A stretch of 64,000 bases of DNA from Allosphingosinicella sp. (GTDB lineage: Bacteria; Pseudomonadota; Alphaproteobacteria; Sphingomonadales; Sphingomonadaceae). The stretch spans positions 23,710 to 87,709 of the forward strand of contig DASVUZ010000062.1 in the NCBI GenBank assembly GCA_036386795.1, given 5' to 3'. Every line of letters begins with the position of its first letter. Position 1 is the stretch's first letter. Under the pieces are notes generated by a model. It did no database searches. It saw only the letters and a list, made by a program, of their open reading frames with translations, and had not been told where the DNA came from. Position numbers and translations under genes: made by a program. Of this stretch, positions 20,618 to 59,268 are shown piece by piece.

Positions 20618-20710
20618 GGAGACGTGGGTGAGTGGCTGAAACCAGCGGTTTGCTAAACCGCCGTAGGGGGATTACTCCTACCGAGGGTTCGAATCCCTCC
20701 GTCTCCGCCA
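20618..20710 (+). tRNA. tRNA-Ser(GCT)
   Basis: GGAGACG acceptor stem, GAGTGG D-loop, GCGGT-TTGCTAA-ACCGC anticodon arm, long variable arm, GTTCGAATC, encoded CCA. Confidence 0.97.
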
Positions 20711-20824: not shown

Positions 20825-20846
20825 GTGTGGGAACATTTGAGGGAGC
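20825..20846 (+). promoter_or_regulatory. Putative integrase arm-type site (left end)
   Basis: GTGTGGGAACATTTGAGGGAGC, two imperfect 11-bp units; 16/22 identical to 59185-59206 and 17/22 to 39450-39471. Confidence 0.55.
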
Positions 20847-20850
20847 GGAA

Positions 20851-35142: not shown

Positions 35143-36042
35143 TTAGTCGGGCTGCGCAAGCCTCTCCCGGCAGACGCGCTCCACGATCTGCTGAAGCCCG
35201 GTCACCCGTTCGGTGAGCCAGTTCAGCTCTTCGTCGTAGATCTTGTAGTGCGGCGAATAGCGGGCGTTGACGTAGGCCTGGCGCAGCAACTCGAAAGCGC
35301 GCCGCTCGAATTTGCCCTCTCGAGGCCACGCCTCGATCAGAGCCGGGGCGATCTGCTCGGCCTGGGACCTCAGGAAATTTAGCTTGTGGGACTTCGGGCT
35401 GTAGAGCGTCAGCACCAGCAGTACGCAGTGATAGAAGCGCTCTGCGGCCTGGTGCAGCTCAAAGGCGGCCTTGTTCGACCAGCCCCGACCGGCGGCATCC
35501 TGGCCGTGGACCAGAAACTGGCCCGCGCTCGGGAACCACTCGTTGAAGTAAGCCGCGGCCTCTGCCCGCTGCTGCTCCGGCGGCAGCCTCCGAGGTGTCG
35601 CGAACGGAAACCCTTCGGCCTCATAAAGCGCCACCCCGTGCTCGGCGATGTCGACGAAGAAGGGGCGCCCGCGCTCGAGCTGGCTGTTCACGTCGCTGAG
35701 CGAGTGGACGATGAAGTTGACCGGCGCGCTGAGGGTCTTCGCGATCGAAGTCTCTCGAAGCAGCCTGTCGTCGGCTACCGACCAGAAATCCACCACGTCG
35801 GTCAGCCGCTCGTCGCTGACGACCACGAGGATGTCGTAGTCGGACCGATAGCCGCCAACGGGATCGTCTACCCACCCGCCGCGGGCGTAGGAGCCGTAGA
35901 GCACCACCTTGAGAATGCGGCCGCCCTTCTTCCACCCCTGGGTCGCCCGAGCGGTCACTGACTCGAACTCCTCGAAGAGAATGCGCACGACAAGTGCGAG
36001 CTCGCGCTGCTTCGTCGAAGGAAGGTCAAGGTCGGTTCGCAT
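35143..36042 (-). CDS. Fused nucleotidyltransferase (MNT)-HEPN protein
   Basis: LYGSYARG..SDYDIL (MNT); AAFELHQAAER, AYVNARY (HEPN). Confidence 0.9.
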   Translation of the reverse strand: MRTDLDLPSTKQRELALVVRILFEEFESVTARATQGWKKGGRILKVVLYGSYARGGWVDDPVGGYRSDYDILVVVSDERLTDVVDFWSVADDRLLRETSIAKTLSAPVNFIVHSLSDVNSQLERGRPFFVDIAEHGVALYEAEGFPFATPRRLPPEQQRAEAAAYFNEWFPSAGQFLVHGQDAAGRGWSNKAAFELHQAAERFYHCVLLVLTLYSPKSHKLNFLRSQAEQIAPALIEAWPREGKFERRAFELLRQAYVNARYSPHYKIYDEELNWLTERVTGLQQIVERVCRERLAQPD

Positions 36043-40979: not shown

Positions 40980-41181
40980 AAGCCCACATCGCACCAAAGC
41001 AAGGTGAGGCCAAACCGAGATTGGTCGAGTATAGGCACGGGCGCCCGCGGCGGATAGTCGCCTCCCAACAATCCCCTCCGCCATCAACACTGGCGCAGCT
41101 AGCAAGGCCTCCTAAATAGGATCGAAAGAATAGAGCGGTGCCGTGCCGGAAAATCGCGGCATCAAACCCGGGGATGCCAGG

Positions 41182-44100
41182 ATGAAGTGGATCACGACCG
41201 CGCAGCTCGACGCATGGGGACGGACAAGAACGTCAGAGACCGAGCTCCCGGGCATGATCTCCGATCTTGTCCGCGCGACAGCGCCAGACATCACCGCAAT
41301 CCGCTTTCCGACCGGTGAGAAGGGCCAGGTCCGTGGCTTCGACGGCGTGCTCGACAGCTCGGTCGAGGTCCTGAATGTTCCACAGGGAAGATCCTATTGG
41401 GAGTTCGGCACCGAGGCGGGTCACCAGGCCAAGGCACTCAAAGACTTCAAAAAGCGCACCGACCAGGTCAGCGCCACCGATCAAGCGGAGGCGACGTTGG
41501 TTCTCGTCACCCCCTTCACCTGGGATTCCTCCGATTCAAAAAACAAGATCGAGGATTGGGAAAAGGCCCGCAAGAAGGAGTCCGAATGGAAGAAGGTCAA
41601 GCTGATCGACGGGGCGCAGCTTGAGGACTGGCTCGCCGAATGCCCCGCAGTGTCGGCCTGGCACGCGAAGAACACTCTTCGGGTCGCCCCGCGGGAGGGC
41701 GTGCGCAGCACGGATGATTATTGGTTTGATTTCGCGGACCGATTCGACCCCCGGCTGATCGAGGAAATGCTCCTCGCCGAGCGCGAACGTCAGGTCGACG
41801 AACTGCTGACCGGCTTGATGGGCCCGCCCCAGCCGCTGCGCTTTATCGCCGATTCGCCAGACGAGGTGACTGCGTTCGCGGTGGCCGCAATCCGCTCGGC
41901 AAAACCCGAGGTGAAGCTGTTCCTCGAAGCGCGGACGCTAGTCGTCGACACTTCCGACGCCGCGCGCGAGCTGGCGGGCAAATCCAATCTGGTATTCCTG
42001 GTCCGCGGCGAAGCGGCGCGCGCGCCGGGTCAGCTCGGCGACACTGGCCCGACCCTCGTGCCGCTCGGCCGGCAACAGGCCGTTAAAAAGGGCACCCTGC
42101 TCGAACGCCCCAGCAGCTTCGCCATGGCGAACGCGCTTGCCAAGATGAACCAGCCCCAGGCCCGCGCGGAGGCGCTTGCCAAGGGCTGCGGCCGCAGCCT
42201 CACCGCGCTTGCCCGGCAAATCCCCGGTGGCACCTGCGAAGTGCCGGATTGGGTCGAGCATGCGCAATTGCTGCTTCCCGCCATCCTTGCCGGGGGATGG
42301 GACAGTACCAACCCGCTCGATCAAGCCGTGGTGACCACGCTCGCCGGCGCCAGCAGCTATACTAATTATGAAAGCAGGATTCGCGGCTTCGTCGAAGGTT
42401 CGGACCCGGCGCTAGATCGCGAAGGCACGGTCTACAAAGTGCGCGCCCCGATGGACGCGTTCGTACATGCCGGCCACCACATTGGCCGCGAACATTTGGC
42501 GCTCCTCCGGCCGGTGCTCGAGCAGGTATTCAGCGTGCTTGATCCCGACCCCGATCCCGACGAGTCGTTTCGCTTTGGCGCGGAACGGGTGCCGCGATAC
42601 AGCGACTGGCTGCGCGATGGCCTCGCCAACACGCTGCTTTTGATCGCGCTCTGGCAGGACACCGCGCGGCTCGATTTGACCCCAGGAGAGGGGCAGGCGT
42701 TCGCCGATAAAGCCATTGGCGAGCTTCCGGGTCTCAAGACCAACGCCAGGCTCCTCACAAGTCTCAAAAACGAGCTGCCAATTCTGGCGGAGGCAGCCCC
42801 AGATGTTTTTCTGTCGGCCCTCGAGCACATGCTCGAGGGCGAGGGAGCAGCGATCCGCCCGATCTTTGATGAGGTTTATGGTCTGTCCTTCCGAACCTCG
42901 CGCCACACCGGGGTGCTATGGGCATTGGAGACGCTTGCCTGGGATTCGCGGCGGCTACGGCGCGTAGCGCTGATCCTGGCGCGCCTCGCCGAGATCGACC
43001 CCGGCGGCCGGCTGGCCAATCGTCCCGATGCGAGCCTTGCCGATATCTTCCTGCCCTGGCATCCCGGCACGCATGCGCCGGCCGATGCTCGGCTTTCGGT
43101 TGTCGACGATATCATCGCGTCGCACCCGCAGGTGGGATGGAAGCTGCTGCTCCGGTTACTGCCCGACGAGATGCGCATCACAAGCGGCACGGCGCGGCCG
43201 CGCTTGCGCGAGTCGGACGTCCCGGCACCAGCAGTGACGCATCACGACCTGGCCCTCGCCTATGATGCGCTAATCACCCGGGCGATCGCGGCGGCGGCGG
43301 GCGATCCGGCGCGCATGCAGGAACTGCTGCGGCCGATGATGCGGTTCGCGCCACAACAGCGGGCGGCGGCGCTCCGGGCGCTGGACGATACGCTCGCCAG
43401 CGCCACTGGTGAGGTTCGCGAACAGCTCTGGACCGGGTTGCGCAGCACGTTGCGGCAACACGAACGGTTTCCGGACGCTGATTGGTCGCTTCCGACCGTG
43501 GAGCTTGCCGAGGTACGCCGCATCGTCGGTGCCTATGCGCCCGCCGATCCGGTCGTGTCGGTCGCTGAGCTGTTCGATGTCCGCGCGCTTGAGCGCGACG
43601 ATGCTGCCGCCGCTGCTGAGCGCGCGCGTGTGGTCGAGAAGCTATATCTCGAGCAGGGCTCCGAGGCGGTGCTCGCGCTCGCCGGCACCGCACGGATGTG
43701 GCATCTCGTGGTGCGCGCGATTGAGGACAGTGGGCTCGACACCGCGCAGGTAGAGACGTTGCTCCGGAAGAGCTTCGCTGCAGAGCCGGGTGGGTCGCTC
43801 GCAACCGCGCTCGCCTCGGTCTACCGCCGCCGCACCGACGAGGCCGCGGCGCTCCTGCTAGTGAAGGAGCTCCACTGCGCCTCCGGCAACGACGATGCCA
43901 CCGCCGCGTTGCTGTTTGCCTGGCCAGACGAGCAAGAGACCTGGCAGGCGCTACCCAAGATCGGGACCGGCGTGGAGGATAGCTATTGGCGCCACGTGAA
44001 GCCCTTCTGGATCGAGGGATCCCCACCGCTGCTGGTCGAGCGAGTGACGCGCCTACTCGAATATGGACGGGCGATCGCTGGCCTCGAATCGGCGCTGAAC

Positions 44101-44922
44101 CGGCTGGTCGACATTCCGACCGATCTGCTGTTCCGGCTGCTCGATGCGATTGTAGACGAGATCAACAGCGGGACTGCGCAGAGCATGGTAGCGGGCATGC
44201 TGGACTATGATCTCGAACAAGCCTTCCGTGCTCTCGATGCCCGCGATGCAGATGCCCTTGAGATCGGCAAGCGGGAATATGCCTTGCTGCCGCTGCTCGA
44301 ACGACAGGAGCGGCCGCTTCGCCTGCACGGCCTGATGCTCGCGGATCCGGAGTTGTTCCACAGTATCGTACGCGACGTCTATCGCGGCGACAACGACCCG
44401 CCGCCGGATGAAGCAAAGCTCGACCCGGCCGAGCGGGGCCGCTGGCGTCAGGCATATCGATTGCTCTCGAGTCTCGACCGGACCCCCGGCTTCCTGTCGG
44501 ATTCACCGGATCACGGCGTGCTGACGGCATGGATCGACCGGGTCCGCGAGCTCGGGCGCCAACATGAGCGCGCTGAGGTGACCGACGTCGTGATCGGGCA
44601 GGTCCTAGCCCATGCGCCGCAGGACGATGCGGATGGGGCATGGCCGCACCGCTTTGTTCGAAATGAGATCGAACGCGCCGCGAGCGATGAACTGGAACGA
44701 GGCATCCAAACTGAGCGATTCAACATGCGCGGCGTCACGACGCGCGGCATGTATGATGGCGGCGATCAAGAGCGCGTGCTGGCCGACGAATATCAGGGCC
44801 ATGCGCGCGCCAGTCATCGCTGGCCGCGGACGGCGGATATGCTGGAGCGCATGGCCGCCGGGTGGGCGCGCGATGCCGAGCGCCAGGATTTGGAAGCCCG
44901 GCAGCGGCGGCTGAGGAGCTAG
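41182..44922 (+). CDS. Large putative defence protein: N-terminal nuclease-like domain, degenerate NTPase-like region, helical repeats
   Basis: 1246 aa from ATG 41182; IRFP.G...GFDG...YWEFGT; no intact Walker A (FIADSPDE at the expected place); long helical C-terminus. Confidence 0.6.
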   Translation: MKWITTAQLDAWGRTRTSETELPGMISDLVRATAPDITAIRFPTGEKGQVRGFDGVLDSSVEVLNVPQGRSYWEFGTEAGHQAKALKDFKKRTDQVSATDQAEATLVLVTPFTWDSSDSKNKIEDWEKARKKESEWKKVKLIDGAQLEDWLAECPAVSAWHAKNTLRVAPREGVRSTDDYWFDFADRFDPRLIEEMLLAERERQVDELLTGLMGPPQPLRFIADSPDEVTAFAVAAIRSAKPEVKLFLEARTLVVDTSDAARELAGKSNLVFLVRGEAARAPGQLGDTGPTLVPLGRQQAVKKGTLLERPSSFAMANALAKMNQPQARAEALAKGCGRSLTALARQIPGGTCEVPDWVEHAQLLLPAILAGGWDSTNPLDQAVVTTLAGASSYTNYESRIRGFVEGSDPALDREGTVYKVRAPMDAFVHAGHHIGREHLALLRPVLEQVFSVLDPDPDPDESFRFGAERVPRYSDWLRDGLANTLLLIALWQDTARLDLTPGEGQAFADKAIGELPGLKTNARLLTSLKNELPILAEAAPDVFLSALEHMLEGEGAAIRPIFDEVYGLSFRTSRHTGVLWALETLAWDSRRLRRVALILARLAEIDPGGRLANRPDASLADIFLPWHPGTHAPADARLSVVDDIIASHPQVGWKLLLRLLPDEMRITSGTARPRLRESDVPAPAVTHHDLALAYDALITRAIAAAAGDPARMQELLRPMMRFAPQQRAAALRALDDTLASATGEVREQLWTGLRSTLRQHERFPDADWSLPTVELAEVRRIVGAYAPADPVVSVAELFDVRALERDDAAAAAERARVVEKLYLEQGSEAVLALAGTARMWHLVVRAIEDSGLDTAQVETLLRKSFAAEPGGSLATALASVYRRRTDEAAALLLVKELHCASGNDDATAALLFAWPDEQETWQALPKIGTGVEDSYWRHVKPFWIEGSPPLLVERVTRLLEYGRAIAGLESALNRLVDIPTDLLFRLLDAIVDEINSGTAQSMVAGMLDYDLEQAFRALDARDADALEIGKREYALLPLLERQERPLRLHGLMLADPELFHSIVRDVYRGDNDPPPDEAKLDPAERGRWRQAYRLLSSLDRTPGFLSDSPDHGVLTAWIDRVRELGRQHERAEVTDVVIGQVLAHAPQDDADGAWPHRFVRNEIERAASDELERGIQTERFNMRGVTTRGMYDGGDQERVLADEYQGHARASHRWPRTADMLERMAAGWARDAERQDLEARQRRLRS

Positions 44923-45389: not shown

Positions 45390-48300
45390 CTACGGAGCCA
45401 GATTTTGTCGCCGCCGCTTTCTTGCTCGCGGGGCCCTGTTTGACCGCCGCTTAGCTGCGCGGTCTAGTGCCGCGACGTCGAGCACGACAATGTCGGTGCG
45501 CGCGCGCAACTCCGGCGACAAGTCCGCCTCGAGTAACGCCGCAAGCTCCTGCCCGGAGGTCGGCACCACTCCATCCCTGCGAGCGGGCGGGGGTGCGACA
45601 TCGCCGAACCAGAAGATGAGCAACACTCCGTAGCCATCGGCACCCTCGTCAGCAACATAGCCTTGAAGTTGGCCTTCAGCCGCGTGCCAAAGGTCAGAAT
45701 GGTAATGGCGTTTCGCTTCGATCGGCAGGTTACGAGAGGCGCCTGATACGATGAGAACATCGGCACGGCTGTCGTCACGGCGCTGCGCTTCAGGGAGCGC
45801 GACAGCAATCCGGTACTTCACAAGCCGGTCATGAAGCCGGGTCAACGTGATGTCGCGCGCAATGTTCTCGATCTTGGGCGTCGTCGGTTTTCCATGCGCG
45901 TCGGTATTCCAATAGTCACGCCATGGGCTAGTGGCGCCCGTGCGCAGCTCCCGCGCGAACCGCCGCAGCTCGTTGACGACGACCGCCCGCAAATCCGCGG
46001 CGTTGACGGGAGCGCGACCCGCAAGCGCCTCGGCGACCGCCGCCGCATCAGGGGGGAGAAACTCAGCGTCACGCCGGGCGCGGCCCTGCTGCTCGGCCGC
46101 ATGCTTTAGAGCTGCATCCCATTTAGGATAGGCGGTGAGCTTAGCCTTCAGCGCGGCGATCGCGGCGGTAGCGTCGGGCGTGGCTAGCGCAGCGAGCCGA
46201 TTGAGGAAGGCGTTGCCGGCGTCGCTCTGGCGGTGTGATTGCAGAACCCGGCCGCTGCGCCGCTCGACATAGGGCTCCGCATGAGGCGCCACAAGTGCGA
46301 ACATTCCGGCCGCAATCGCCACCTGCTCCACGCCACTGCCGCGTGGAAAAACGTCGATCAGCCGGGTGCCCGATATCCCGTCGCACAAGGCGAGCAGATC
46401 CGCGTCGTCATTGCCAGACAGTGGATCACGGCCGCCGAGGGGGTCGAGCGCGAACAAGGTGAGGCCCCAGATCGCCCGCTGCTTTGCGGGCAGTGCCGAG
46501 CCGGCGAGAGCCGCGGCAGCGATTCCAGCCAGCGCGGCCCGGTCTAGGTGCTTTGCGGCCACCGCGATCAGGGTGCGCAGCGTGTCGGGCGGGAGCGCGG
46601 GATGGCGGGTCAGCATCGCCGCGCTCGCGAGCGCCACCGCTTTTCCGCCCCCATCGTCGCCGGCCTGATGCCAGTGGTTGCTGTGCCCGCCATGGGCGAG
46701 GATCGCCTCCCAGTAGCTCTCGAGGGCGGCGGCGCCGGCGACCGGGTCCAGGTTGAGTCGGTCCCAGGCCCAGCGCTCGAGGGCCTCGCGCGACCCGCTG
46801 GGGTGGGTGATCCAGCCGCTGCGCAGCACGATTATCGCGAGCGTGAGCGGCAGCGTAAGGAGGTCATAGTCGCCTTCCGACCGGAGCCGGTCCAATCCGG
46901 CCATCGCGGCATATTCGGAATAAAAATGGCCTCCCTTCGCCTCGAACTGGCCAAGTGTTTCGGGATGGACACCGGGAGTGTCGGCAGTCGCGAGGACGCG
47001 CCAGCCGGTTAGGATGGCGTCGAGCACCGCATCGTCGCTTTCGGCGGCGACTCGCTCCAGCCCCGACTGAGCGGCTTCCTTCTTGTCGCGCGGGTGGAAA
47101 TAGATTTCGGCAGCCCAGGCGAGCGTCGACTTGTAAAGCGCGCTGGCGATGCCGGCGATGTTACGCCGGAGCGTAGCGAGCTGCTTCGAGCGACGCTTTG
47201 CTTCGGCCTGACCGGTCTGACGCGCCCGCGTATACTGGCGCATCCGCCAGCGTTCGATGTCGACGACAGTGAGCTCGCGCAGCAGCCGCTTGCCGCTGCG
47301 CCGCATCGATTCGAGAAATGCGAATAGGCGCCAGTAAGCGTCCTGGCCAACATCGTAGCGCCGTGCGAGGTTCACCGCGATCGCGAGCGGACGTCGTTGA
47401 ATTGCGCCCTTCGCCTCCGCCGCGCGCGTCACGAGATGGTCGAGGATCTGGCCGTTCGGCGAGCCAGCGACCATGATATAGTAGGTGCCGATCATCCACG
47501 GGCCCTCGGCCGGATCGTCGGTCCCGAGGATCGATTCGAACAAGGCTAGCTCGCGCGACGGATTCGCCTTCAGCCATTCGGCCACGGCCGGCCGGGTGGC
47601 GTTGCGGAGATTGGTCCATTTGTCTTCGCGAGCGTGGACTAGCCAGCGCCACAATCGCGGCGCATCGAGGTCCGGGGTGCCGCGGATCGCAGCAGCAAGA
47701 GCATGGTCGAGAAGGTCCTCGACCTCGACGTCATGCCGACGCCCGCGCTCGGATGACAGCCAATCAAGCGGCGCATCGAACAGCGCCGGGCGCGGGTGCG
47801 CGACGAGGAAGCTGCGTAGGCCGTAAAGGCGCATGATCACATTATCATCGGGCAGTCGTACGAAATCGCCGATTAGGCTGGTGAGGTCGGCGAGGGTGAT
47901 CAGCTCGGGGGGCATCGCGCTCAATAACTCGGCGCGCACGGCCTCGCGCGCGGCCGAACGCGGCTCGGCGGAGAGCGCGTCGAAGAGGTCGCGGCGCGCT
48001 GCAGCGGGATCCGCCTGACCGTTAAGCCAAGCGTCGGTGGCCCGGGTGCGCTGCCACTCTGGCCGGGCCGGATCGAGGGCGATGGCTCGCAAGCGAGGTT
48101 TGAGCGACGCCACCGGCGGGCCGGCGCCGAGCACCTCATAGACCGTCATCATGCGGTGGGTGCCGTCGCCCTTTTCGATTGCGTGCGCTAGATCCTCGCT
48201 CAACTCCTCGCAGGCGAGCCCGCCGACCGACGTGGTGCCAACGTCTGAGGCGCGAAAATAGGGGTCGTGACGGTCAAGGTTGGCCAGCATTGCTCGCTTG

Positions 48301-49505
48301 GCGGCTGTGTCGAACACCGCGGCGTCACCATAAACGAGAGCGCTGACCGCATCGGCCTCGACCAGCTCGCGCGCCTCAGCATGCGCGCCGAACTTGGCGA
48401 GGTGGGCGGCGAACCAGGCGTAAAGCCCGCGCAGGTCGGTGGGCGCGCGGCCGTCCTTGCCGGTGATGAGCGCCGCGGCGCGGCCCAACGGCAGCGCCGC
48501 AGTGCTTGCGCCGCCGATTATCGCGCGGGCGAGCGCGCGGCCGCCGAGGAACTCGGCGATCGTCCGGTGAACGGGTTCGAACGCTTCGCCTTCACCGCGA
48601 AACAGCGCTGAGCCGACAAGATCGTCGACGAGCGGCGGGTCGAAACCCAGGGCGCTCGCCGGCAGATTGGCGCGCGCGTCGCCCGAGCGGGGCAGCGCTC
48701 CCGAGCGCCAAAGGAAGCGGCTACCAGTCACGAGCAAGAAGAGGCTCGTTGTGGCGGCCGCGGTGAGGATCGCCTCCGCGCTGGCGCGGCTGCGGTCAAG
48801 TCGATGGACCTTATTCTCTTCGTGGGCGAGCGCGCTGGTCGCCTGATCGAACAACGCAAACCGGGTGGTCGGCCATGGCTTGTCGCCGATCACCGCCTCA
48901 CGCAGCAACTTGAGGCTGAGTGGGCTTTCGAGCAGGCCACCGGCGCCCATCGCGAGCGCGCGGTCGACGAACGACTCGGGGTCGGCCTCGCCCAGCGCCT
49001 GCAGCACGGCGAGCGCCTCGGGGATTTCGAGCGGGAGCAGTTGCGCCACGGTGATGGGAGCGCCCGCGGTGGTGCGGCGGATCGCGTCGAGATCGGCGCC
49101 TTTCTGCCAATCCTCTGCACGGCAGGTCAGCCGCCACTGCGGCGTGCCGGCGGCGCGGATCGCGCCCACCAGCTGATGGACCTTGTCGAGATCGGTGGCA
49201 CCGACGCGATACTCGTCGAGTGCGTCGAGGAACAGCGTGCCGCCTGGCAGGTCAACGCTGTTGTTGATCAGTTCGCGGACCTTGATCACCGTAGTGCCGG
49301 CGGCGGCTGCCTCGACTTCGAGCACCGTCGTTTTGCCGATGCCGGGTTCGCCGAGTAGGACGAGATAGGGCCGGTCGCGCAGCGATGAGATGGTCGCCGC
49401 CGCCGCGGCGTCGCGGCCTCCATCTAGAATTTGGACTCGTCGATCGAGCATCGTTTGTCCGTCTATGGGCTCGCGAAATTGGCGCCGAGCGGTGTCCGAG
49501 ACCAA
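45390..49505 (-). CDS. STAND/NACHT-like NTPase with C-terminal PD-(D/E)xK nuclease
   Basis: Walker A GEPGIGKT, Walker B LFLDALDE, RLTCR, QLLPL; C-terminal RADVLI...IEAK..Y...W. Confidence 0.8.
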   Translation of the reverse strand: MVSDTARRQFREPIDGQTMLDRRVQILDGGRDAAAAATISSLRDRPYLVLLGEPGIGKTTVLEVEAAAAGTTVIKVRELINNSVDLPGGTLFLDALDEYRVGATDLDKVHQLVGAIRAAGTPQWRLTCRAEDWQKGADLDAIRRTTAGAPITVAQLLPLEIPEALAVLQALGEADPESFVDRALAMGAGGLLESPLSLKLLREAVIGDKPWPTTRFALFDQATSALAHEENKVHRLDRSRASAEAILTAAATTSLFLLVTGSRFLWRSGALPRSGDARANLPASALGFDPPLVDDLVGSALFRGEGEAFEPVHRTIAEFLGGRALARAIIGGASTAALPLGRAAALITGKDGRAPTDLRGLYAWFAAHLAKFGAHAEARELVEADAVSALVYGDAAVFDTAAKRAMLANLDRHDPYFRASDVGTTSVGGLACEELSEDLAHAIEKGDGTHRMMTVYEVLGAGPPVASLKPRLRAIALDPARPEWQRTRATDAWLNGQADPAAARRDLFDALSAEPRSAAREAVRAELLSAMPPELITLADLTSLIGDFVRLPDDNVIMRLYGLRSFLVAHPRPALFDAPLDWLSSERGRRHDVEVEDLLDHALAAAIRGTPDLDAPRLWRWLVHAREDKWTNLRNATRPAVAEWLKANPSRELALFESILGTDDPAEGPWMIGTYYIMVAGSPNGQILDHLVTRAAEAKGAIQRRPLAIAVNLARRYDVGQDAYWRLFAFLESMRRSGKRLLRELTVVDIERWRMRQYTRARQTGQAEAKRRSKQLATLRRNIAGIASALYKSTLAWAAEIYFHPRDKKEAAQSGLERVAAESDDAVLDAILTGWRVLATADTPGVHPETLGQFEAKGGHFYSEYAAMAGLDRLRSEGDYDLLTLPLTLAIIVLRSGWITHPSGSREALERWAWDRLNLDPVAGAAALESYWEAILAHGGHSNHWHQAGDDGGGKAVALASAAMLTRHPALPPDTLRTLIAVAAKHLDRAALAGIAAAALAGSALPAKQRAIWGLTLFALDPLGGRDPLSGNDDADLLALCDGISGTRLIDVFPRGSGVEQVAIAAGMFALVAPHAEPYVERRSGRVLQSHRQSDAGNAFLNRLAALATPDATAAIAALKAKLTAYPKWDAALKHAAEQQGRARRDAEFLPPDAAAVAEALAGRAPVNAADLRAVVVNELRRFARELRTGATSPWRDYWNTDAHGKPTTPKIENIARDITLTRLHDRLVKYRIAVALPEAQRRDDSRADVLIVSGASRNLPIEAKRHYHSDLWHAAEGQLQGYVADEGADGYGVLLIFWFGDVAPPPARRDGVVPTSGQELAALLEADLSPELRARTDIVVLDVAALDRAAKRRSNRAPRARKRRRQNLAP

Positions 49506-49600: not shown

Positions 49601-49918
49601 GTGGACAAGAAGCTGCATCGTCGCCGCGCGCGGCGCGCCTGGCCGAAGCTCGTCGCCGCCGCGAAGCGCGGTAAGCCGCTTAGCTACAAGGAGCTCAGTG
49701 CCAGCATCGGAGAGCATTGGCGCGCCGCGAGCTGGTTTCTCGGCGTGATCCAACGCTGCTGCGCGAAGATGGGGCTGCCGCGGTTGCAGGCGCTTGCGGT
49801 TAACCAGCAGACCCGCATTCCCGTCAAGGGCTATTCCGGCAGCCGCGGAAGGCGCGCGCACGCGCGAGAGGTCGAGCGGGTACGCGAGCAATGCTGGCCT
49901 AAGAAGGCGCCGTTCTAA
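49601..49918 (+). CDS. Small winged-helix-like protein
   Basis: GTG start with AGGAGG RBS at 49585-49590; LSYKELS..IG...FLGVI..CC...GLPRLQALAVN. Confidence 0.65.
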   Translation: MDKKLHRRRARRAWPKLVAAAKRGKPLSYKELSASIGEHWRAASWFLGVIQRCCAKMGLPRLQALAVNQQTRIPVKGYSGSRGRRAHAREVERVREQCWPKKAPF

Positions 49919-50927: not shown

Positions 50928-53900
50928 GTGATCAGGAGCTCGACCCTGACGAAATCCGAACCGAGATTGCCGGAAAGCGCCGCGGACGAGCACGACTTCT
51001 GGAAGCTGGGGCCCAGGAGGTTCGAGCACCTCGCGCGGGCGCTGCACGGGGCGCAGCCGGGGATATTCGGCGACAGCCTCTATGGTCCGGATGGCCAAAT
51101 CCAATTTGGTGCAGACCACGTAGCGCATCGGCGCACCAGCTCAGGCCCCGAGCTCGAAGTCGGCCAAAGCAAAGCCTATCGTAGGTTTACCCCTCAGCAG
51201 GTTAGGACGGCCGCGGACCAGTTCCTGGAACATTGGGACGTCCATTGGAGCGGCAAGAACGTCCGTCGTTTCATCCTGTTCGTGGGGTGCGCGATCAAGT
51301 CTCGAGCTGCCCACGACGAGATCCTCACCCAGGTCGCCCGATTCGACGAACTCGGCATCGAGTTCGTGGTCTGGGACGCGAACGCGATCTACGATCGACT
51401 GGCAGGCGCACCAACGGTGGTCCGCGGCCATCTCGACCAAGGGTGGTATGAGCGCCTCTTTGGCCCGCAGGTGGGCCCCCTCACTGGCCTGCAGAAGGAC
51501 CTTCAGCTCGGCGATTTCGGTGCAGCAAACGTTGCCGCTTATGTGGGCCAGCTCAACCTTGCACAGAGTGCCCTGGTTGACGAGCTTAAGCGAAGCATTC
51601 GCCGCGGGGAATCAGAACGAGCGCGAATGACGCTCGAGCAGGCACTGTTCCAGTCAGCCGCTGCGTCTGCCTCAGCGCCAGAGACGAGAGCGAGCATGCT
51701 GCGTCTTCTCGCGGGCCTGCTGATCCGACAGGAGGCGTTCGAGCGGGCGAAAGCACTTTTCGACGAAGCCGACGCCCTGGATGGCGGGTCATCGGAGCGT
51801 GGCCGCGCTATCCTCGCCCTGGAAGCGATAGGGCCGGAAGCGGCCCTGTCCCAAACCGCAGAGACGACATCCCCTGAAGTCATCGAGGTCCGCACGATCG
51901 CGTACCTCAGGCTGAACCAAGTTCAAGAGGCGCTAAGGAGCCTAGCGGACGTTCCCAAAGGGCCAACCGGAGCTGAGACCCTCAGGCTTAGGGCGCTGGC
52001 GCAGCTATTGATCGGCGACCGCGCGAACGCCGTCTCATCCGCCCGCGAGGCCGTTTCACGGGATTCGGACAATCGGGCTTGCCGCCAGATGTTGGCGATT
52101 TGCCTGTTCCACCATGCGCTTTCTCCTGTTGTTGAGCCTATTGTTGGAGAATGGCCACACCCCGTTGATCAGCCACTCGTGCGCGAGAGCGACGACGCCG
52201 TTCGCGACCTGACCGAGGCGTCTGAACTCTTTGCAGATCTGTCCAGCCAGCCCGACCTTCGCGATCGAGACTCGATGGCAGCATGGCTCCTCGGCACGCT
52301 CGCATGTCTTCCTCGCCGTCGTTCCGAGGCTCAGCTATTGCTTGAGCAGCTACTCCTCGGTGATCGGTTTTCCGCGCCAGCGGTCGCCTGGGGAATGGCA
52401 AGGGGGTTGGATTTCGATCGAGTGGCTGCCGGGCGCCAACTTGATGCTCTCATTGCTGAGCGGCCGGATGATCTCGAAATCCGTCTCATTCGAATTGCTC
52501 TGGCTGTGCAGACCCGTGAATTGCCGCTCGCCAAGCGCCTGCTGAAAGAGGGAATGGCGAAGCCGGAGGCAGCGGGCGAGCAGCCGTCGTTCGCCTACTG
52601 GTCAGTAGTGCTTGACCTAGAGGGCGGCCGCCCGCTTTCGAAAGAGGCGATGGCGACTTATCCTTGGGTCGCATTCCGAGCAGCTCTTCGACTGCGCCCC
52701 CGTAAGAAGCGGCTTCAGGAGATCGACCGCCTGGCGAAGGATGCGGCCGCTCCTGGGGGCGATCGTCGAGTTCTATTGGCGGCGCTCCAACACCTCCTGG
52801 AGGGCGGACGGCATAATACGCCGGCCGACGCCGCTCACATACTGATAGAGGAGGTGGACACCGCTGAGGCGATCGCTGTGGCCGCACATGCGCTTTATCA
52901 GGCCGACCGCCCCGGGGAGGCCTTGGCGGCGCTCCAAAACGTGTCGGCCTTCCCCGACTCGAGACTCCCGGTAGATTTGGAACGACTGCGCGTCGCAAGC
53001 TTGACCGCCTCAGGCGAACTCCTCGAGGCGACGCGGGAGAGCCGCCGCATCGCGGAGACGACGCTGTCCCCGGGCGATCTCTGGCAATCCATCAACCTTC
53101 AATTGGCTGTCGGCGCCGTGCCTGCCGCCATCGCTCTGTACGAGCGGCATGCCGACAAATTGGCCGATCCACACCCCGGACATATCCACCTGGCTGCCCT
53201 TGCGCTCCATCACGACCGAGGCGCCGCGATCCGGATTACGCGGACCCTTGCCAGTCATGTTCCGGACGAACTCGTCACCGGTACGTACGGATTGGCGGCC
53301 AAGCTGAACCTGGCAGCCGAGCAAGACATGCTGGTTGAGCGGATACAGGATCTTGGAAGGCGCGGCGCCGAAGGCGTCCAGATGATCTCGGACATCGATA
53401 CTGTCGTGGAGATGATGAAGAAGCGCCGGGCCGCGGCGGACGAGGCCTACGAGAAGTACCAGCGCGGGCACATTCCCATCCATGCGATGGCCCGGTCCAA
53501 TCCGGGAGCGCTCGCGCAGCTCTACCTAGGCAGACTGGTAGTGCCGGAACCGGAGGGCGCGCAACCGCCCCCGTTATTTGCCCGCTACGGGCGCCGGTAT
53601 GAGCAGCCTTGGCCCGCCGAAGCGAGCGACGTCGTCCTGACCGCCGACGTTACGGCTCTGCTCACGGCTCATGGCTCGGGCATACTCGATTCCGTTGAGC
53701 GCGCCTTTCGACCGATCAGGATCGCGCCTGACATCCAAAATGCGCTGGCGGAGATTCGCTCGAGCCTGGAACCGGCCCAACCATCCCGCGTCGAAGCGAA
53801 GCGGGCAGTTTTGAGCCTTCTTGATGATTGTCGACTGAGCTGCCGGTCCTCGGACCTGGAAATTGATACCTACAAGGTGCGCTGGGATCTGGAGGGGAAT

Positions 53901-56900
53901 GATCCAGCGAATACGCTCAACCTTTCGCGCCTCGTATCTCTAATGAAGATAGACAACCGGCGTGAGCTGGGCGCCATCCGGAAGAAGCTGGGGACGACGA
54001 TCGTGGAGCCAGCTATCGGGCCAGCGCCGAAAGCGGGCAGCCAGATTAGCTTGGACGGGGTGATGGTTGTGACCCTGGCCGAGGTCGGAGCCCTCCCTCA
54101 TCTGCTGAACTCCTTTAAGCTCGTAATTGAGCCCGAAGAAGCTGCCACTCTACGGTCGGAGATCGCTGCAGATGAGCAAGCTGCGGTGGTATTGGCCTCG
54201 CTGAACAAGCTCATAAGCCGACTGGCGACAGGGATCGGGGACGGCACCTACTCCTTTGTCCCGCCTACGTCTGACCACGACGACCCATTAGGCCGGTCCT
54301 TCTTCCAAGTGGTCTCTTCCATGAAGCAGCCGGGGTCGACTCTTTGGATAGACGACCGATTCACCACCGCCTTTGAGACCCCATTCTTCCGCACAGTGAC
54401 CACTGCGGAGATTCTCGGGGCTCTGGCTAGGTACGAGCGGATCGACGGTCGGGTGCGGTCGGAATGTCGTCAGCGGCTGCGGAAGGCCCATTGGCTCTTC
54501 CTCGACATCCACGCCGAGGAAATCACCCAGTACCTTCGCGAAGCCGTTGCCGATGGAGACGTCAAGGCAACGGAAGACCTCGCAATCCTTCGGCGGGGCG
54601 CCGCCGCAAACGATCTCAATCGTCGCTGGTTTCAGTTTCCGGATGATGAGGCCGCCAAGAAAGGCGCGCGCGGCGAGCTGCCGTTCCTTCTCGACACTGG
54701 TAACGCCGCCGCGGACGTGCTTCGCGAATTATGGAATGACGAAAGCCTTGCGATCGAGGATGCTAAGGCAGCTTCCTCGTGGCTTGCCGAGTACCTCGAT
54801 CCTGAGTTGCTTTCGCTGAGCGTGCTCGCGCCCGAAGATCCGCGCAACGACCTGCTCGTCGGGCTCCATCTGGCCCAGTTGGTGATGGTGGGCATCCAGC
54901 TCCTTCCGCCCAAGTCGAAGCGCGATCGTCTCCGCTCCTACCTAGACTGGGTGTGGGAAACCGTGATCGACGAACGCTTACGTATGCGGCCGGAGATGCA
55001 GGAGCCGTTCGAGGCGGCTCTCGAGCGATATCTGATCGATCTGCTGGAGGACGACCCTTCACTGCACAGACCGACTTGGATCGCGCTTGCCGGAAACCTG
55101 ATCAATTCGCTGCCGAAAGCGCCGCGCCTTCGATTGCTCGAACGGCCCAAAATCCGAGGCGCCTTCGGAAACCCCGATCACGGCAATATAACAATCGACG
55201 AGCTGCAATTTGACGAGGTCGATTTCTGGAAGGCCGCCGCCTCCGCAAGCGTCAATCAGGCTGCCACACTGAGCACGGTGACAGGGAAACAGGCCACCCT
55301 GCGCCTCCGCCCGGCTACGGATAGGCACGCGGCCAGCCTCGACCTAAAGATCGGCAGGCGAACCTTGCACCTCGATGACTGGCCGGCGAGGGTTGCCGCA
55401 CCAGCACGGGACATCAGGCGCACAGCGATCGCCGAGAAAGCGGACCTTCTCGATATGGCGTCAGATCGGCTGGATCGGCTGGCGGCAGATCTCGCGCGGG
55501 TGCGCCCCGCTTGGAAGCGTCCCATGCGCGTGATGCAGCTAGCGGGCAAAACATTGCCCTCTTGGTACGCGGACCTGGAGGGCGATCTCCGACAGCAGAA
55601 GCCCTTTAAGGCTACAGTGCTGGTCCCTCAGGAGCTGCCGCCGATCCTGGCCTACCTCCGACTGTCCACCGACACAGATCAGGCGGTCGGAGACCTCATC
55701 CGCGAACGTGGACTTATGGTGACCATCCAGCGGTGGAGCCATCTGCCAGTCCCGCCGCCCGAAGCTCTTCTCGATGAGATAGAGCGCGCTACGCCAGCCG
55801 ACATAAACGCACTGATGAACCTCGTGACCGATGCGAGCCGCGGTGTCTGGAGCAGGATGTTTGTGGCGGGAATCTTGTGGGCCCGCGGCCAGGGCGATGA
55901 GGAAATTCGTCCCCGTCTAGCTCGCGCGGTACTCGAGATCGCCTCAAAGGAGGGCGTAGCCGAAGAATGGGCACTCTACAGCACCGCCGCCCATTTCTTC
56001 GCTTCTGAGTTTGCTCGGCTGGACGGGTGGTCCGATCTCACAGCTCGCCAACAACTCGCCGTTGCCTGGGTTCATGCGGGCGAGGTGGCGCAGCGCCTGA
56101 TGGATGCCACTAAAGATCTTCGCCGCACGGCGAGGTGGCTGGAAAGTTCGCGTCTGATTTCGCCGCGAACTCTTGTCCGAGAACGCGCCGGCTATGCGGG
56201 CGACTTCGCCGATCCGTCGCATGTGACGCCGGCACGGCTTCGGCTATTGGCTACCGGGCCGTATCTTGTGGAATTGGTGCGGGACCCCGTATGCGGCCCA
56301 GAAGCCAAAGAGCTCCTCATCGATCATATGGGGGAACGGACCGAAAGCGGCCTGCTGCCGCGCTCGGATACGCTTCAGGCCGGGCTCTGCATCAGTGACT
56401 GTCTCGGCAGCTATCTCGCTGCTGACCTCGGGAGAATGACCGATGAAATCCTCCCTGGGTCGATAATATTCTCCAGAGACGGTCTCACGGACCTGCTTCG
56501 CAGCTCCTTGGAGGAGCCAGCCGACTCGAGAGCGTTCCGTGTGGTGTGGAGTCATCTGCTCGGCGTCACGAGCGGCTTCCTAGCGAGTTCCTCCCTATCG
56601 GCGCTGGCGAGGCGGCGGGTGTACGATCTCGACCTTACTTCGCAGGAAGATGGTCTGCGCCACGCCAGGGAGGTCCTACAGGCGATCACAAGGCTTGCCG
56701 GGGCGAACGGATGGCTTGACCTCGCTCCCGCTATCGACGCCGCGTCGATAGCGCTCTCGCGCGAAGCGCGGGAGCCGGAGGACGAGGATATCCGTTCGCT
56801 GAGCACCATGTTGGAGATCGCATTCTGGCGGGCCCGCCTGGAAGACGATCTCGACGCCCGCACCGCCATCTTCGCCAGAGATCTCGAGCGCCTCGCAGCG

Positions 56901-57017
56901 CACCCAAGGCTCAAAACGGCAGCTGAAGGGGCAGCCGGTCGGTTCGCTACGGCCCTCGCAGGCCGCCACGCGGCGCCGTTTATCGACCTCCTCGCGAAGC
57001 TGCGGGCGCAACGGTAG
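50928..57017 (+). CDS. Giant putative defence protein: Mrr/REase-like nuclease + TPR + PIN-like domain(s) + helical C-terminus
   Basis: 2029 aa; FEHL..LYGPDGQ.QFGAD..QSKAY; TPR-like helices; ADVTALL and LWIDDR PIN-like motifs; no Walker A seen. Confidence 0.7.
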   Translation: MIRSSTLTKSEPRLPESAADEHDFWKLGPRRFEHLARALHGAQPGIFGDSLYGPDGQIQFGADHVAHRRTSSGPELEVGQSKAYRRFTPQQVRTAADQFLEHWDVHWSGKNVRRFILFVGCAIKSRAAHDEILTQVARFDELGIEFVVWDANAIYDRLAGAPTVVRGHLDQGWYERLFGPQVGPLTGLQKDLQLGDFGAANVAAYVGQLNLAQSALVDELKRSIRRGESERARMTLEQALFQSAAASASAPETRASMLRLLAGLLIRQEAFERAKALFDEADALDGGSSERGRAILALEAIGPEAALSQTAETTSPEVIEVRTIAYLRLNQVQEALRSLADVPKGPTGAETLRLRALAQLLIGDRANAVSSAREAVSRDSDNRACRQMLAICLFHHALSPVVEPIVGEWPHPVDQPLVRESDDAVRDLTEASELFADLSSQPDLRDRDSMAAWLLGTLACLPRRRSEAQLLLEQLLLGDRFSAPAVAWGMARGLDFDRVAAGRQLDALIAERPDDLEIRLIRIALAVQTRELPLAKRLLKEGMAKPEAAGEQPSFAYWSVVLDLEGGRPLSKEAMATYPWVAFRAALRLRPRKKRLQEIDRLAKDAAAPGGDRRVLLAALQHLLEGGRHNTPADAAHILIEEVDTAEAIAVAAHALYQADRPGEALAALQNVSAFPDSRLPVDLERLRVASLTASGELLEATRESRRIAETTLSPGDLWQSINLQLAVGAVPAAIALYERHADKLADPHPGHIHLAALALHHDRGAAIRITRTLASHVPDELVTGTYGLAAKLNLAAEQDMLVERIQDLGRRGAEGVQMISDIDTVVEMMKKRRAAADEAYEKYQRGHIPIHAMARSNPGALAQLYLGRLVVPEPEGAQPPPLFARYGRRYEQPWPAEASDVVLTADVTALLTAHGSGILDSVERAFRPIRIAPDIQNALAEIRSSLEPAQPSRVEAKRAVLSLLDDCRLSCRSSDLEIDTYKVRWDLEGNDPANTLNLSRLVSLMKIDNRRELGAIRKKLGTTIVEPAIGPAPKAGSQISLDGVMVVTLAEVGALPHLLNSFKLVIEPEEAATLRSEIAADEQAAVVLASLNKLISRLATGIGDGTYSFVPPTSDHDDPLGRSFFQVVSSMKQPGSTLWIDDRFTTAFETPFFRTVTTAEILGALARYERIDGRVRSECRQRLRKAHWLFLDIHAEEITQYLREAVADGDVKATEDLAILRRGAAANDLNRRWFQFPDDEAAKKGARGELPFLLDTGNAAADVLRELWNDESLAIEDAKAASSWLAEYLDPELLSLSVLAPEDPRNDLLVGLHLAQLVMVGIQLLPPKSKRDRLRSYLDWVWETVIDERLRMRPEMQEPFEAALERYLIDLLEDDPSLHRPTWIALAGNLINSLPKAPRLRLLERPKIRGAFGNPDHGNITIDELQFDEVDFWKAAASASVNQAATLSTVTGKQATLRLRPATDRHAASLDLKIGRRTLHLDDWPARVAAPARDIRRTAIAEKADLLDMASDRLDRLAADLARVRPAWKRPMRVMQLAGKTLPSWYADLEGDLRQQKPFKATVLVPQELPPILAYLRLSTDTDQAVGDLIRERGLMVTIQRWSHLPVPPPEALLDEIERATPADINALMNLVTDASRGVWSRMFVAGILWARGQGDEEIRPRLARAVLEIASKEGVAEEWALYSTAAHFFASEFARLDGWSDLTARQQLAVAWVHAGEVAQRLMDATKDLRRTARWLESSRLISPRTLVRERAGYAGDFADPSHVTPARLRLLATGPYLVELVRDPVCGPEAKELLIDHMGERTESGLLPRSDTLQAGLCISDCLGSYLAADLGRMTDEILPGSIIFSRDGLTDLLRSSLEEPADSRAFRVVWSHLLGVTSGFLASSSLSALARRRVYDLDLTSQEDGLRHAREVLQAITRLAGANGWLDLAPAIDAASIALSREAREPEDEDIRSLSTMLEIAFWRARLEDDLDARTAIFARDLERLAAHPRLKTAAEGAAGRFATALAGRHAAPFIDLLAKLRAQR

Positions 57018-57093: not shown

Positions 57094-58125
57094 TCAGCCG
57101 AAGGACAAGCTGAGGAAATTGTCGGTGCCGTGTTGGTTCGAACCGAACCGCACCTTATAGTCCGGACCCAGCGCGGCGGCGTGCGTCTCTGCGCTCGCGG
57201 GATCAGGGTGAAGTCCGGCAAAATGCCAAGGAGCAGAGCGCACGACGCCGTAGCCGCGATACCAGCCGGGATTGGAGGCATCGAGGAAGGGCATCAGGTT
57301 CTGAATCGGAAACCCACCGAACCACAGGCCGAAGCCCACGCCCCAGCCGCTTTCGTCGGGCTCGATACTCGAGCTGACCAGTCCGACGATCTCACCGGCC
57401 TCGTTGAACAAGGGACCGCCACTCATCCCCGAGCGCCAATTCGCCTTGAGCTCGACGATCGGCCAAGGACGTGACTGGCCGAGCCCCTGCGGATGGATGG
57501 CTACGACCTCCCCGATCGCGCCGTACATCCGCTCGACGTATCGGGGCTGCTTGGGCAGCGGTTCATCCTGTACCAATCCGAGTTCGGGGTATCCGATTGC
57601 CAGAAGGCGGTCGCCTATCGCCGGAGGTGTGCCCGAGCAGCGCAACGGCAGCGGCGCCAGCCGCTTCGCACGTTCTTCAGACTGAATAGCGAGGCTGAGC
57701 CGCAGGCAGTCCGCCAGGATCTTCGAACCGCTCTTGCCGGAGACGAAGTTGTGAAACGGATCCTGCGGACTCAGGTCGACGAAGCCATGCATGCCATTCA
57801 ACGGCGCGAACAGCTCCTGTGGCAATCCGACCGTCCCAAAGACGATGCCGATGTTGAGCATCGCGACCGGTATCTCCTCGAACTCCGGCGGCGGCTTTGC
57901 GAGGTCGACATGCTCGAAGATGTGCTGCGCGGTGAGGAAGCCGCGGAATGGATCAGCGCAGAAGGCTGTGCCGAGGCCGGTCAGATGCCCGGTCTTACGA
58001 TTGACGGAAAGCAATGGGAGAATTGATTCGCGCACTCCGAACGGATCCTCGATACGAAACTCCGCCGGGTCTTGGTCGGACTTGGGAAGGACTGGGAATG
58101 GCACGCGACAGAAACCTCCCTCCAA
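57094..58125 (-). CDS. Trypsin-like serine protease
   Basis: LTAQH (His), ADCLRL (Asp candidate), GMSGGP (Ser); no signal peptide. Confidence 0.85.
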   Translation of the reverse strand: MEGGFCRVPFPVLPKSDQDPAEFRIEDPFGVRESILPLLSVNRKTGHLTGLGTAFCADPFRGFLTAQHIFEHVDLAKPPPEFEEIPVAMLNIGIVFGTVGLPQELFAPLNGMHGFVDLSPQDPFHNFVSGKSGSKILADCLRLSLAIQSEERAKRLAPLPLRCSGTPPAIGDRLLAIGYPELGLVQDEPLPKQPRYVERMYGAIGEVVAIHPQGLGQSRPWPIVELKANWRSGMSGGPLFNEAGEIVGLVSSSIEPDESGWGVGFGLWFGGFPIQNLMPFLDASNPGWYRGYGVVRSAPWHFAGLHPDPASAETHAAALGPDYKVRFGSNQHGTDNFLSLSFG

Positions 58126-58203: not shown

Positions 58204-59148
58204 TTGGTGATCTCGCTCCACGCCTTTGTTGACGATTCCACAAGCGACGTCGATGATCGCCGCCTGTTCCTCGCCGCCTACATTAACGGGGCTGGCCCCT
58301 GGATCGATTTCGGTCATGAATGGCGTGCAGCGCTCGCCGAGCCCCCGGGCATCGCTTATCTGAAGATGGCGGAAGCGCAGAATCTGAGAGGCGAGTTCAA
58401 AGGCTGGTCGGCGACCGATCGGGACTCAAAGATCCTTCGCCTGGCGCACGTGATCGCGGCGAGTCGGCCTTGGTCGGTATATTGCTCGGTCAGCCGGAGG
58501 GACTATGCGCGGATCGTAGCGCCGGCCGCGCCCTATCCGCTCAAACAGCCTTATTTCTGCTGCTTCTGGGGGATCATTCGTACGTCGGCCGATTACCATC
58601 TGCACCTCGATAACGACCGTCCCGCCGACACTCACCCCATTCCGCCGCTTCAATACGTGTTCGACGAGCAAGGCGGGCTCGGGACCGATGCGGCGCTCTG
58701 GTATGCGTGGCTCAAGCAGACACAGGAACCGCCGATCGCCGCGCTGATGGGCGATCAGCCTATTTTCGGCGACGACAAAGCCATGATGGGACTGCAGGCG
58801 GCGGACATGCTCGCCTGGCACGTGCGGCGGCGGCACGAGCGCGGCCCGGACGGCCTTCAACCGATCCTCGACCTGCTGCTCGGAGACGGCGCCTGTCGGG
58901 AAGTCGACGCTGCGGCGCTTGAGCTATGGGCTAGGGAATTTCGTCGCATACCTGGGGTCGCTGGTGTCCAAACGAAGCGGGAGTGGCACGAGACCCGAGC
59001 TGCGGCACTAGCAGCTATTGAGGCTGGCGAGTCTCCCCCGGCTACGAGCTTGGCACGTCTGCGCTGGCTGAGTTTCAAGGTAGCTTGGCGTCGGCTGGCG
59101 AAAGGCTGGCGACGTCGCGTTCGACGAAGGAACCGACGGAGCCGTTAG
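58204..59148 (+). CDS. DUF3800 family protein
   Basis: AFVDDS at the N-terminus, YVFDEQ, GLQAADMLAW; basic C-terminal tail. Confidence 0.8.
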   Translation: MVISLHAFVDDSTSDVDDRRLFLAAYINGAGPWIDFGHEWRAALAEPPGIAYLKMAEAQNLRGEFKGWSATDRDSKILRLAHVIAASRPWSVYCSVSRRDYARIVAPAAPYPLKQPYFCCFWGIIRTSADYHLHLDNDRPADTHPIPPLQYVFDEQGGLGTDAALWYAWLKQTQEPPIAALMGDQPIFGDDKAMMGLQAADMLAWHVRRRHERGPDGLQPILDLLLGDGACREVDAAALELWAREFRRIPGVAGVQTKREWHETRAAALAAIEAGESPPATSLARLRWLSFKVAWRRLAKGWRRRVRRRNRRSR

Positions 59149-59206: not shown

Positions 59207-59248
59207 GGTGCCACTTTCACCGCCATTTTCTCTCACAAAGTACCGCAG

Positions 59249-59268
59249 CCTCCGTCTCCGCCAGAGCC
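59249..59268 (+). repeat. attR core (duplicated tRNA-Ser 3' end)
   Basis: CCTCCGTCTCCGCCAGAGCC, identical to 20696-20715. Confidence 0.92.

Follow-up and report, generated by a model that had tools for sequence, protein, structure and literature searches.

Does a bacterial receptor gene that reads NTPase first and nuclease last define a new class of immune protein, or does it belong to a family already on record? The question is raised by a 64,000-nucleotide stretch of DNA from Allosphingosinicella sp. (assembly GCA_036386795.1, contig DASVUZ010000062.1, positions 23,710 to 87,709 of the forward strand; the whole of it hereafter called the window). One long open reading frame (ORF) on its minus strand encodes a protein with a nucleoside triphosphatase (NTPase) module of the STAND type at its N-terminus and a nuclease-like domain at its C-terminus. 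From this inverted order the initial annotation had proposed a distinct class of proteins resembling the nucleotide-binding leucine-rich-repeat receptors (NLRs). We find that the odd layout is real but belongs to a family already described and characterised by experiment, of which the window gene is a divergent member rather than a novel NLR class. Very likely its product is an antiphage NLR-like receptor that acts as a single protein and belongs to the Erebus (EruA)/Avs10/bNACHT64 family, within a divergent and mostly alphaproteobacterial sub-clade.

The interval 45390..49505 on the minus strand is a single ORF of 1371 amino acids counted from a TTG codon. An ATG at nucleotide 49451, 18 codons inside the TTG, is the start of the database copy of the protein (P0003, 1353 amino acids) and of its homologues, with M(L/I)DRRV. 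Since the homologues, the database copy and the EruA profile all begin there, we took the gene as 45390..49451, with this ATG as the likely start, and residues are numbered throughout in the ATG form. The frame is uninterrupted over 1353 amino acids, the conserved motifs are intact and the length is like that of the homologues. The parts of the gene are as follows.

45390..49451, minus strand: complete EruA-like gene, 1353 amino acids, ATG start, stop codon included (from the ORF, homologue starts and EruA profile match)
49452..49505, minus strand: 18-codon in-frame extension back to TTG, probably untranslated (homologue alignment and EruA profile begin at the ATG)
48252..49451, minus strand: predicted NACHT-type NTPase module with nucleotide-binding, helical and winged-helix parts, residues 1 to ~400 (AlphaFold2, Foldseek, EruA profile)
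49329..49352, minus strand: Walker A, GEPGIGKT, residues 34-41, or 53-60 in the TTG form (translation, invariant columns)
49212..49235, minus strand: Walker B, LFLDALDE, residues 73-80, in the NACHT-style D-x-x-D-E form (translation, invariant columns)
46152..48251, minus strand: region between the end modules (residues ~401-1100), least conserved and presumed to be a helical sensor (column identity, EruA profile)
45393..46151, minus strand: PD-(D/E)xK nuclease-like domain with helical lead-in and Lys/Arg-rich tail, residues 1101-1353 (AlphaFold2, Foldseek, EruA profile)
45711..45791, minus strand: putative catalytic core E1221 ... D1231 ... E1245-x-K1247, translation EAQRRDDSRADVLIVSGASRNLPIEAK (invariant residues, model)
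45711-45767, minus strand: the stretch RADVLIVSGASRNLPIEAK (RADVLI...IEAK), residues 1229-1247 of P0003 (translation)

Assignment to the EruA family

The assignment is carried by a full-length match in NCBIfam release 20. The model NF058535.1, "NACHT domain-containing antiphage protein EruA", matched the protein at E 2.4e-252 and 841 bits, with residues 22-1344 (here in the TTG form) aligned to profile positions 1-1317 of 1318. Searched one by one, the three thirds of the protein also matched the profile in order: the first with 397 bits on positions 1-504, residues 540-1080 with 171 bits on positions 539-1015 (E 4.5e-50), and the last with 232 bits on positions 1103-1317. The model of the related Hypnos system (HyoA, NF058534.1) reached only the C-terminal domain and weakly, with no match to the whole protein at E<=0.1 and E 5e-4 (17.8 bits) for the C-terminal piece alone. 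The protein otherwise looks like an orphan because Pfam and PADLOC 2023 yield nothing significant. Pfam-A, searched in a copy without PF28130, returned only sub-threshold P-loop matches (AAA_16 and nSTAND3, E ~0.009) and nothing for the C-terminus, and PADLOC 2023 gave only a noise-level PtuA match. PF28130 (DUF8371) is precomputed on many of the homologues.

Full-length EruA copies were found in three of 41 related genomes, and two of these (1098 and 1080 bits) exceed the curated equivalog cut-off of NF058535.1, which is 1000 bits. The 1098-bit copy, from a congeneric genome, is a protein of 1325 amino acids with Walker A at about residue 36 and GDIACEYGNLHLPIEVKGQWH within its C-terminus, and its module order and D...ExK motifs are those of the window protein. 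Because this cut-off-passing EruA has the same module order and the profile match is collinear, the order NTPase, sensor, nuclease is the normal layout of the curated EruA family and no peculiarity of the window gene. By BLASTP the window protein and the congeneric EruA share ~30% identity, confined to the NTPase and nuclease modules, and a homologue on a Pantoea plasmid (1344 amino acids, 776 bits) shows the same pattern. The 1080-bit copy, in a genome of the same order (G031:C4:626726-630733), contains one in-frame TAA, possibly marking a pseudogene or a sequencing error.

Close relatives of the window protein score 776-873 bits on the EruA profile. Of the 321 clusters that a word-index homologue search returned at E<=0.001, 120 were listed, and most of these are of ~1,350 amino acids. 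Those that carry a name come mostly from Alphaproteobacteria (Sphingomonas, Bradyrhizobium, Bosea, Methylobacterium, Mesorhizobium), with Paraburkholderia in addition. Homologues in the plasmid collection are all annotated "hypothetical protein". A blastn search of E. coli genomes with the Pantoea homologue, seeking an EruA named by the Prokaryotic Genome Annotation Pipeline (PGAP), gave no match. With the present assignment, a large "hypothetical protein" and several hundred alphaproteobacterial relatives, for which PADLOC 2023 and the Pfam copy searched return nothing significant, could be named as Erebus/Avs10-type antiphage NLR-like nucleases.

Erebus, Hypnos and bNACHT64 have been grouped as Avs10 by Lee et al. 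(bioRxiv, PMC12803255; Nature 2026, PMC13581612). As cited in the preprint, the name Erebus goes back to van den Berg et al. 2024 (ref. 16 of PMC12803255), and the family names to that work and to Kibby et al. 2023. We connect the window protein to Avs10 by way of the NCBIfam models for EruA and HyoA rather than by reference sequences. Avs10 is reported to kill the cell when it meets the major capsid protein of a phage; EhAvs10, the member that was tested, recognises the A-domain of this HK97-fold protein (PMC13581612). AlphaFold models show Avs10 bound to the penton/hexon-forming interface of the capsid A-domain (PMC13581612); in the literature searched, Avs10 was represented by such sensor-target models only, and no experimental structure was found. 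With its diverged sensor, the EruA-like gene would extend the range of sensors in a family for which recognition of phage capsid protein has been reported.

The likeness to Erebus EruA extends over the full length of the protein, which is collinear with it and shares an N-terminal NACHT module, a homologous middle and a homologous C-terminal E/D/ExK domain, as well as a size of ~1,330-1,350 amino acids, a single-gene organisation and a patchy, mobile distribution. Avs10 as published, under which Erebus is filed, is a STAND NTPase with a sensor of helical build and an effector on which cell death depends, and the window protein is predicted to be of the same kind. Avs1-5 and Avs7 (Gao et al. 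2022; Lee et al. 2026) are likewise STAND NTPases with a large helical sensor; they defend by abortive infection, in many cases with a PD-(D/E)xK nuclease (Mrr or Cap4) as the effector. Their effector is N-terminal and their sensor comes last, whereas the window protein has ~30 residues before its P-loop and carries its nuclease after the sensor. The protein is indeed distinct from Avs1-5, as the proposal of a separate class had implied, but it falls end to end within a described family of the same layout, EruA/Avs10, and the class proposed from its geometry is not a new one.

The N-terminal NTPase and C-terminal nuclease-like modules

We modelled the two end modules, residues 1-540 and the last 242 residues, with AlphaFold2. 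The N-terminal model has a predicted local distance difference test (pLDDT) score of 85 and a predicted template modelling score of 0.81. In it a short beta-hairpin alone lies ahead of the P-loop strand, which begins at residue 29, and for this reason there is no room for an N-terminal effector domain. This agrees with the initial annotation, which had noted Walker A within the first ~60 residues and no N-terminal effector. Searched against the PDB with Foldseek, residues 1-540 gave 31 matches at E<=1e-3 (best 2.6e-7), among them NOD2, NLRC4, NAIP5, NLRP3/9, Avs4, Avs5 and Avs3. In alignments of 25 and 36 homologues, Walker A residues G34, E35, P36, G37, G39 and K40 and Walker B residues D76, L78, D79 and E80 are invariant; TCR (R111) and FEPxH (H295) are invariant among the 25, and we take them to correspond to the NACHT sensor-1 and winged-helix histidine motifs. 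Residues 1 to ~400 are thereby predicted to form a NACHT-type STAND module.

With the animal NACHT NLRs (NOD2, NLRC4/NAIP, NLRP3), which provide the best structural matches, the protein shares the Walker B D-x-x-D-E form and the FxxxH winged-helix motif. It differs from them in having no CARD, PYD or leucine-rich repeats, and its output would be a C-terminal enzyme in cis rather than an N-terminal adaptor domain. Residues 296-531 are helical in the model, which ends at residue 540. The "~900 aa of helical repeats" read earlier from the sequence runs two things together, the NACHT module's helical and winged-helix portions (to about residue 400) and a middle region of ~700 residues.

At the other end, the RADVLI...IEAK stretch that had first drawn attention lies at residues 1229-1247 and belongs to a motif, E1221, D1231, E1245 and K1247, that is invariant across 25 homologues of 38-74% identity. 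At this depth of divergence the conservation of the E/D/ExK motif is far beyond chance. The model of the last 242 residues (pLDDT 83.6) has an alpha-beta-beta-beta-alpha-beta core in which D1231 stands at the start of the second strand and ExK inside the third, the canonical PD-(D/E)xK positions. PD-(D/E)xK nucleases make up 17 of its 20 best Foldseek matches in the PDB. The matches include Can2, SfsA, EcoO109I, NucS/EndoMS, McrC, PspGI, EcoRV, a Cas4-family protein, OkrAI, SfiI and a cap-snatching endonuclease. Foldseek probabilities reach 0.99, yet the best E-value is just 2.5e-3. Structural matches and invariant catalytic residues together give good support to a nuclease fold, although they do not prove it, and the activity is a predicted one. 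The order of NTPase and nuclease read in the initial annotation is thus upheld at both ends, by the NOD2, NLRC4, NAIP5 and Avs4 matches and by the PD-(D/E)xK matches with their catalytic residues.

Compared with known PD-(D/E)xK nucleases (Can2/Card1, NucS/EndoMS, SfsA, Cas4, type II restriction enzymes), the domain is alike in its predicted core topology and in where E, D and ExK stand; it differs in having neither a Cas4-type cysteine cluster nor a sequence match to solved structures. Past the ExK strand the window sub-clade reads QLQGY where the congeneric EruA reads QLAAQQ, and we presume that the resulting Q-x-x-x-Y helix resembles that of RecB/Cas4-like nucleases. Downstream of the nuclease domain, the last ~25 residues form a Lys/Arg-rich tail, RRSNRAPRARKRRRQN (45393-45470, minus strand), which may contact DNA. 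Basic tails of this kind (PRKKR-like) recur in most homologues; in the model of the window protein, confidence over the tail is low.

Representative proteins matched by a profile of the C-terminal domain number 2,647 at E<=0.001, of which 1,038 reach E<=1e-30. Among the 150 best of these 2,647 relatives, the domain without exception ends no more than ~95 residues from the protein C-terminus. The simplest explanation for the shorter proteins among the 150 would be gene calls truncated at the N-terminus on short contigs. A 289-amino-acid protein on plasmid pAB510e of Azospirillum sp. B510 (5809-6678) corresponds to the C-terminal part of EruA only (profile positions 1044-1316, 280 bits), with the E/D/ExK motifs intact and IS21 within a few kilobases of its gene; it represents either what is left of a truncated copy or the nuclease in a stand-alone form.

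The middle region and the predicted trigger

Between the two modules conservation falls. In the homologue alignment, residues 650-1100 have a mean column identity of 0.36-0.54, while the modules on either side reach 0.6-0.75. Conserved enzymatic ends around a variable middle are the pattern that would be expected of an immune receptor.

Several results weigh against the assignment as we have stated it. The 841 bits of the whole protein lie below the equivalog cut-off of 1000 while other copies in related genomes reach 1098 and 1080, and the window protein is on this account best placed in a sister sub-clade of EruA and not as an equivalog in the strict sense. Over the middle ~540 residues, BLASTP finds no alignment with the congeneric EruA or the Pantoea homologue, and because of this failure the trigger in the alphaproteobacterial sub-clade may differ from the published one. 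The layout itself is not spelled out by Lee et al., whose main text gives the usual STAND order as effector, NTPase, sensor and never states the position of the Avs10 effector or a reversed order (PMC13581612); Kaur et al. 2020 offers nothing directly relevant on C-terminal effectors in STAND proteins. Finally, the C-terminal model had no Foldseek match in the PDB at E<=1e-3 (template modelling scores ~0.3), modest values that are partly explained by the ~70 residues of helical lead-in included in the model, and a profile of the domain found no meaningful match among PDB sequences and no solved relative.

The first of these points bear on what the receptor senses. The sub-clade could belong to the same family and use the same effector while sensing another phage protein, or a host perturbation, instead of an HK97-fold capsid protein. 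The low conservation of the middle region, its failure to align by BLASTP even with a congeneric EruA that passes the cut-off, and the whole-protein score under that cut-off would all fit such a change. We nevertheless consider it rather unlikely: the middle region taken alone is collinear with the EruA profile at an E-value of 4.5e-50, and published Avs sensors respond to a fold even where their targets have hardly any sequence in common, Avs10 itself already pooling the divergent Erebus and Hypnos (PMC13581612).

The structural points bear on whether the C-terminal domain kills. It might instead be a DNA-binding or regulatory module, with a partner encoded elsewhere, or the whole protein might be a STAND regulator without a role in defence. 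A basic tail could simply bind DNA, and a domain with weak Foldseek E-values and no match in Pfam or among PDB sequences would be compatible with this. Such an account is very improbable in our view, given that E, D and ExK remain invariant down to 38% identity and sit on the canonical strands, that the gene has no conserved neighbour and the family no other candidate effector domain, and that mutation or deletion of the effector domain abolished cell death in every Avs family tested, Avs10 included (PMC13581612).

If the window protein acts as an Avs10-type receptor, the published family suggests the following course. The resting protein would be monomeric and autoinhibited. In an infected cell its middle region would bind a freshly synthesised phage protein, with the HK97-fold major capsid protein as the most likely candidate, and the NACHT module would then exchange its nucleotide and oligomerise. 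The C-terminal nuclease domains would be brought together and cut DNA, and the infected cell would die before phage release. The trigger appears to be the least certain step, because the sensor of the sub-clade has diverged.

A further reading, to which we give a small chance, is that the alphaproteobacterial clade (several hundred clusters at 90% identity, ~1,350 amino acids) constitutes a separate Avs10 sub-family. Its sensor core of ~540 residues might then recognise a phage component other than the capsid A-domain. Because the nuclease sits after the sensor, the family may also assemble its effector differently from the solved Avs tetramers with N-terminal effectors; nuclease domains could, for example, form pairs along the oligomer's rim or bridge separate oligomers. 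How an effector placed after the sensor is activated is a legitimate question, and it belongs to the whole published family rather than to the window locus.

The integrative island and its neighbouring genes

The EruA-like gene lies in an integrative island of ~38.5 kilobases, bounded by a tRNA-Ser gene with an adjoining integrase on the left and by a direct repeat of the tRNA 3' end on the right. Besides defence-like genes the island holds copper-resistance genes. Its boundaries and the features around the EruA-like gene are listed here.

20618-20710: tRNA-Ser(GCT), left boundary of the island
20827-22032: tyrosine integrase with domains Arm-DNA-bind_3, Phage_int_M and Phage_integrase, adjoining the tRNA-Ser gene
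35143-36042, minus strand: MNT-HEPN-like fusion of a Pol-beta-type nucleotidyltransferase and HEPN, 299 amino acids (weak PADLOC PDC-S09 match)
41143-44922, plus strand: PD-lambda-4-like protein of 1246-1259 amino acids, convergent with the EruA-like gene (PADLOC PD-Lambda-4_A)
49604-49918, plus strand: ORF of 104 amino acids, divergently oriented to the EruA-like gene, without a family match and absent beside the two homologues examined
50928-57017, plus strand: ORF of 2029 amino acids whose only family match is HTH_upst_double_PIN (residues 823-890, E 4.5e-11), with no PADLOC or NCBIfam match
57094-58125, minus strand: trypsin-like peptidase at the right end of the island, weakly like the protease part of PADLOC RT-Protease_XI
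58204-59148, plus strand: DUF3800 protein beside the trypsin-like peptidase at the right end of the island
59248-59263: direct repeat of the tRNA 3' end (15/16 match), right boundary of the island

In a Sphingomonas genome and a metagenome contig, homologues stand alone beside transposase or integrase genes and share no neighbour. The system is a single-gene one, patchy in distribution and linked to mobile elements. An N-terminal effector encoded separately upstream was considered and rejected, since only the divergent 104-amino-acid ORF lies upstream and no conserved partner occurs in the homologue neighbourhoods.

Carriage on an island raises the further question of whether the copy is decaying or inactive. 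Decay does occur among its relatives, to judge from the in-frame TAA in the EruA copy of a related genome and from the 289-amino-acid C-terminal remnant beside IS21 on the Azospirillum plasmid. For the window gene itself this is hardly to be credited: its frame is open for 1353 amino acids, its motifs are intact and its length is that of the homologues. An intact EruA-like receptor gene remains by far the better description.

The convergent neighbour at 41143-44922 is without a Pfam domain and has ~490 homologues of near-equal length. Twelve of 18 members of its family weakly match PD-Lambda-4_A, the best at E 1.6e-6 and always in the same region of the profile. PD-lambda-4 is Avs8, which is likewise reported as a sensor of capsid protein, and on this sequence likeness two putative capsid sensors may stand side by side at the locus.

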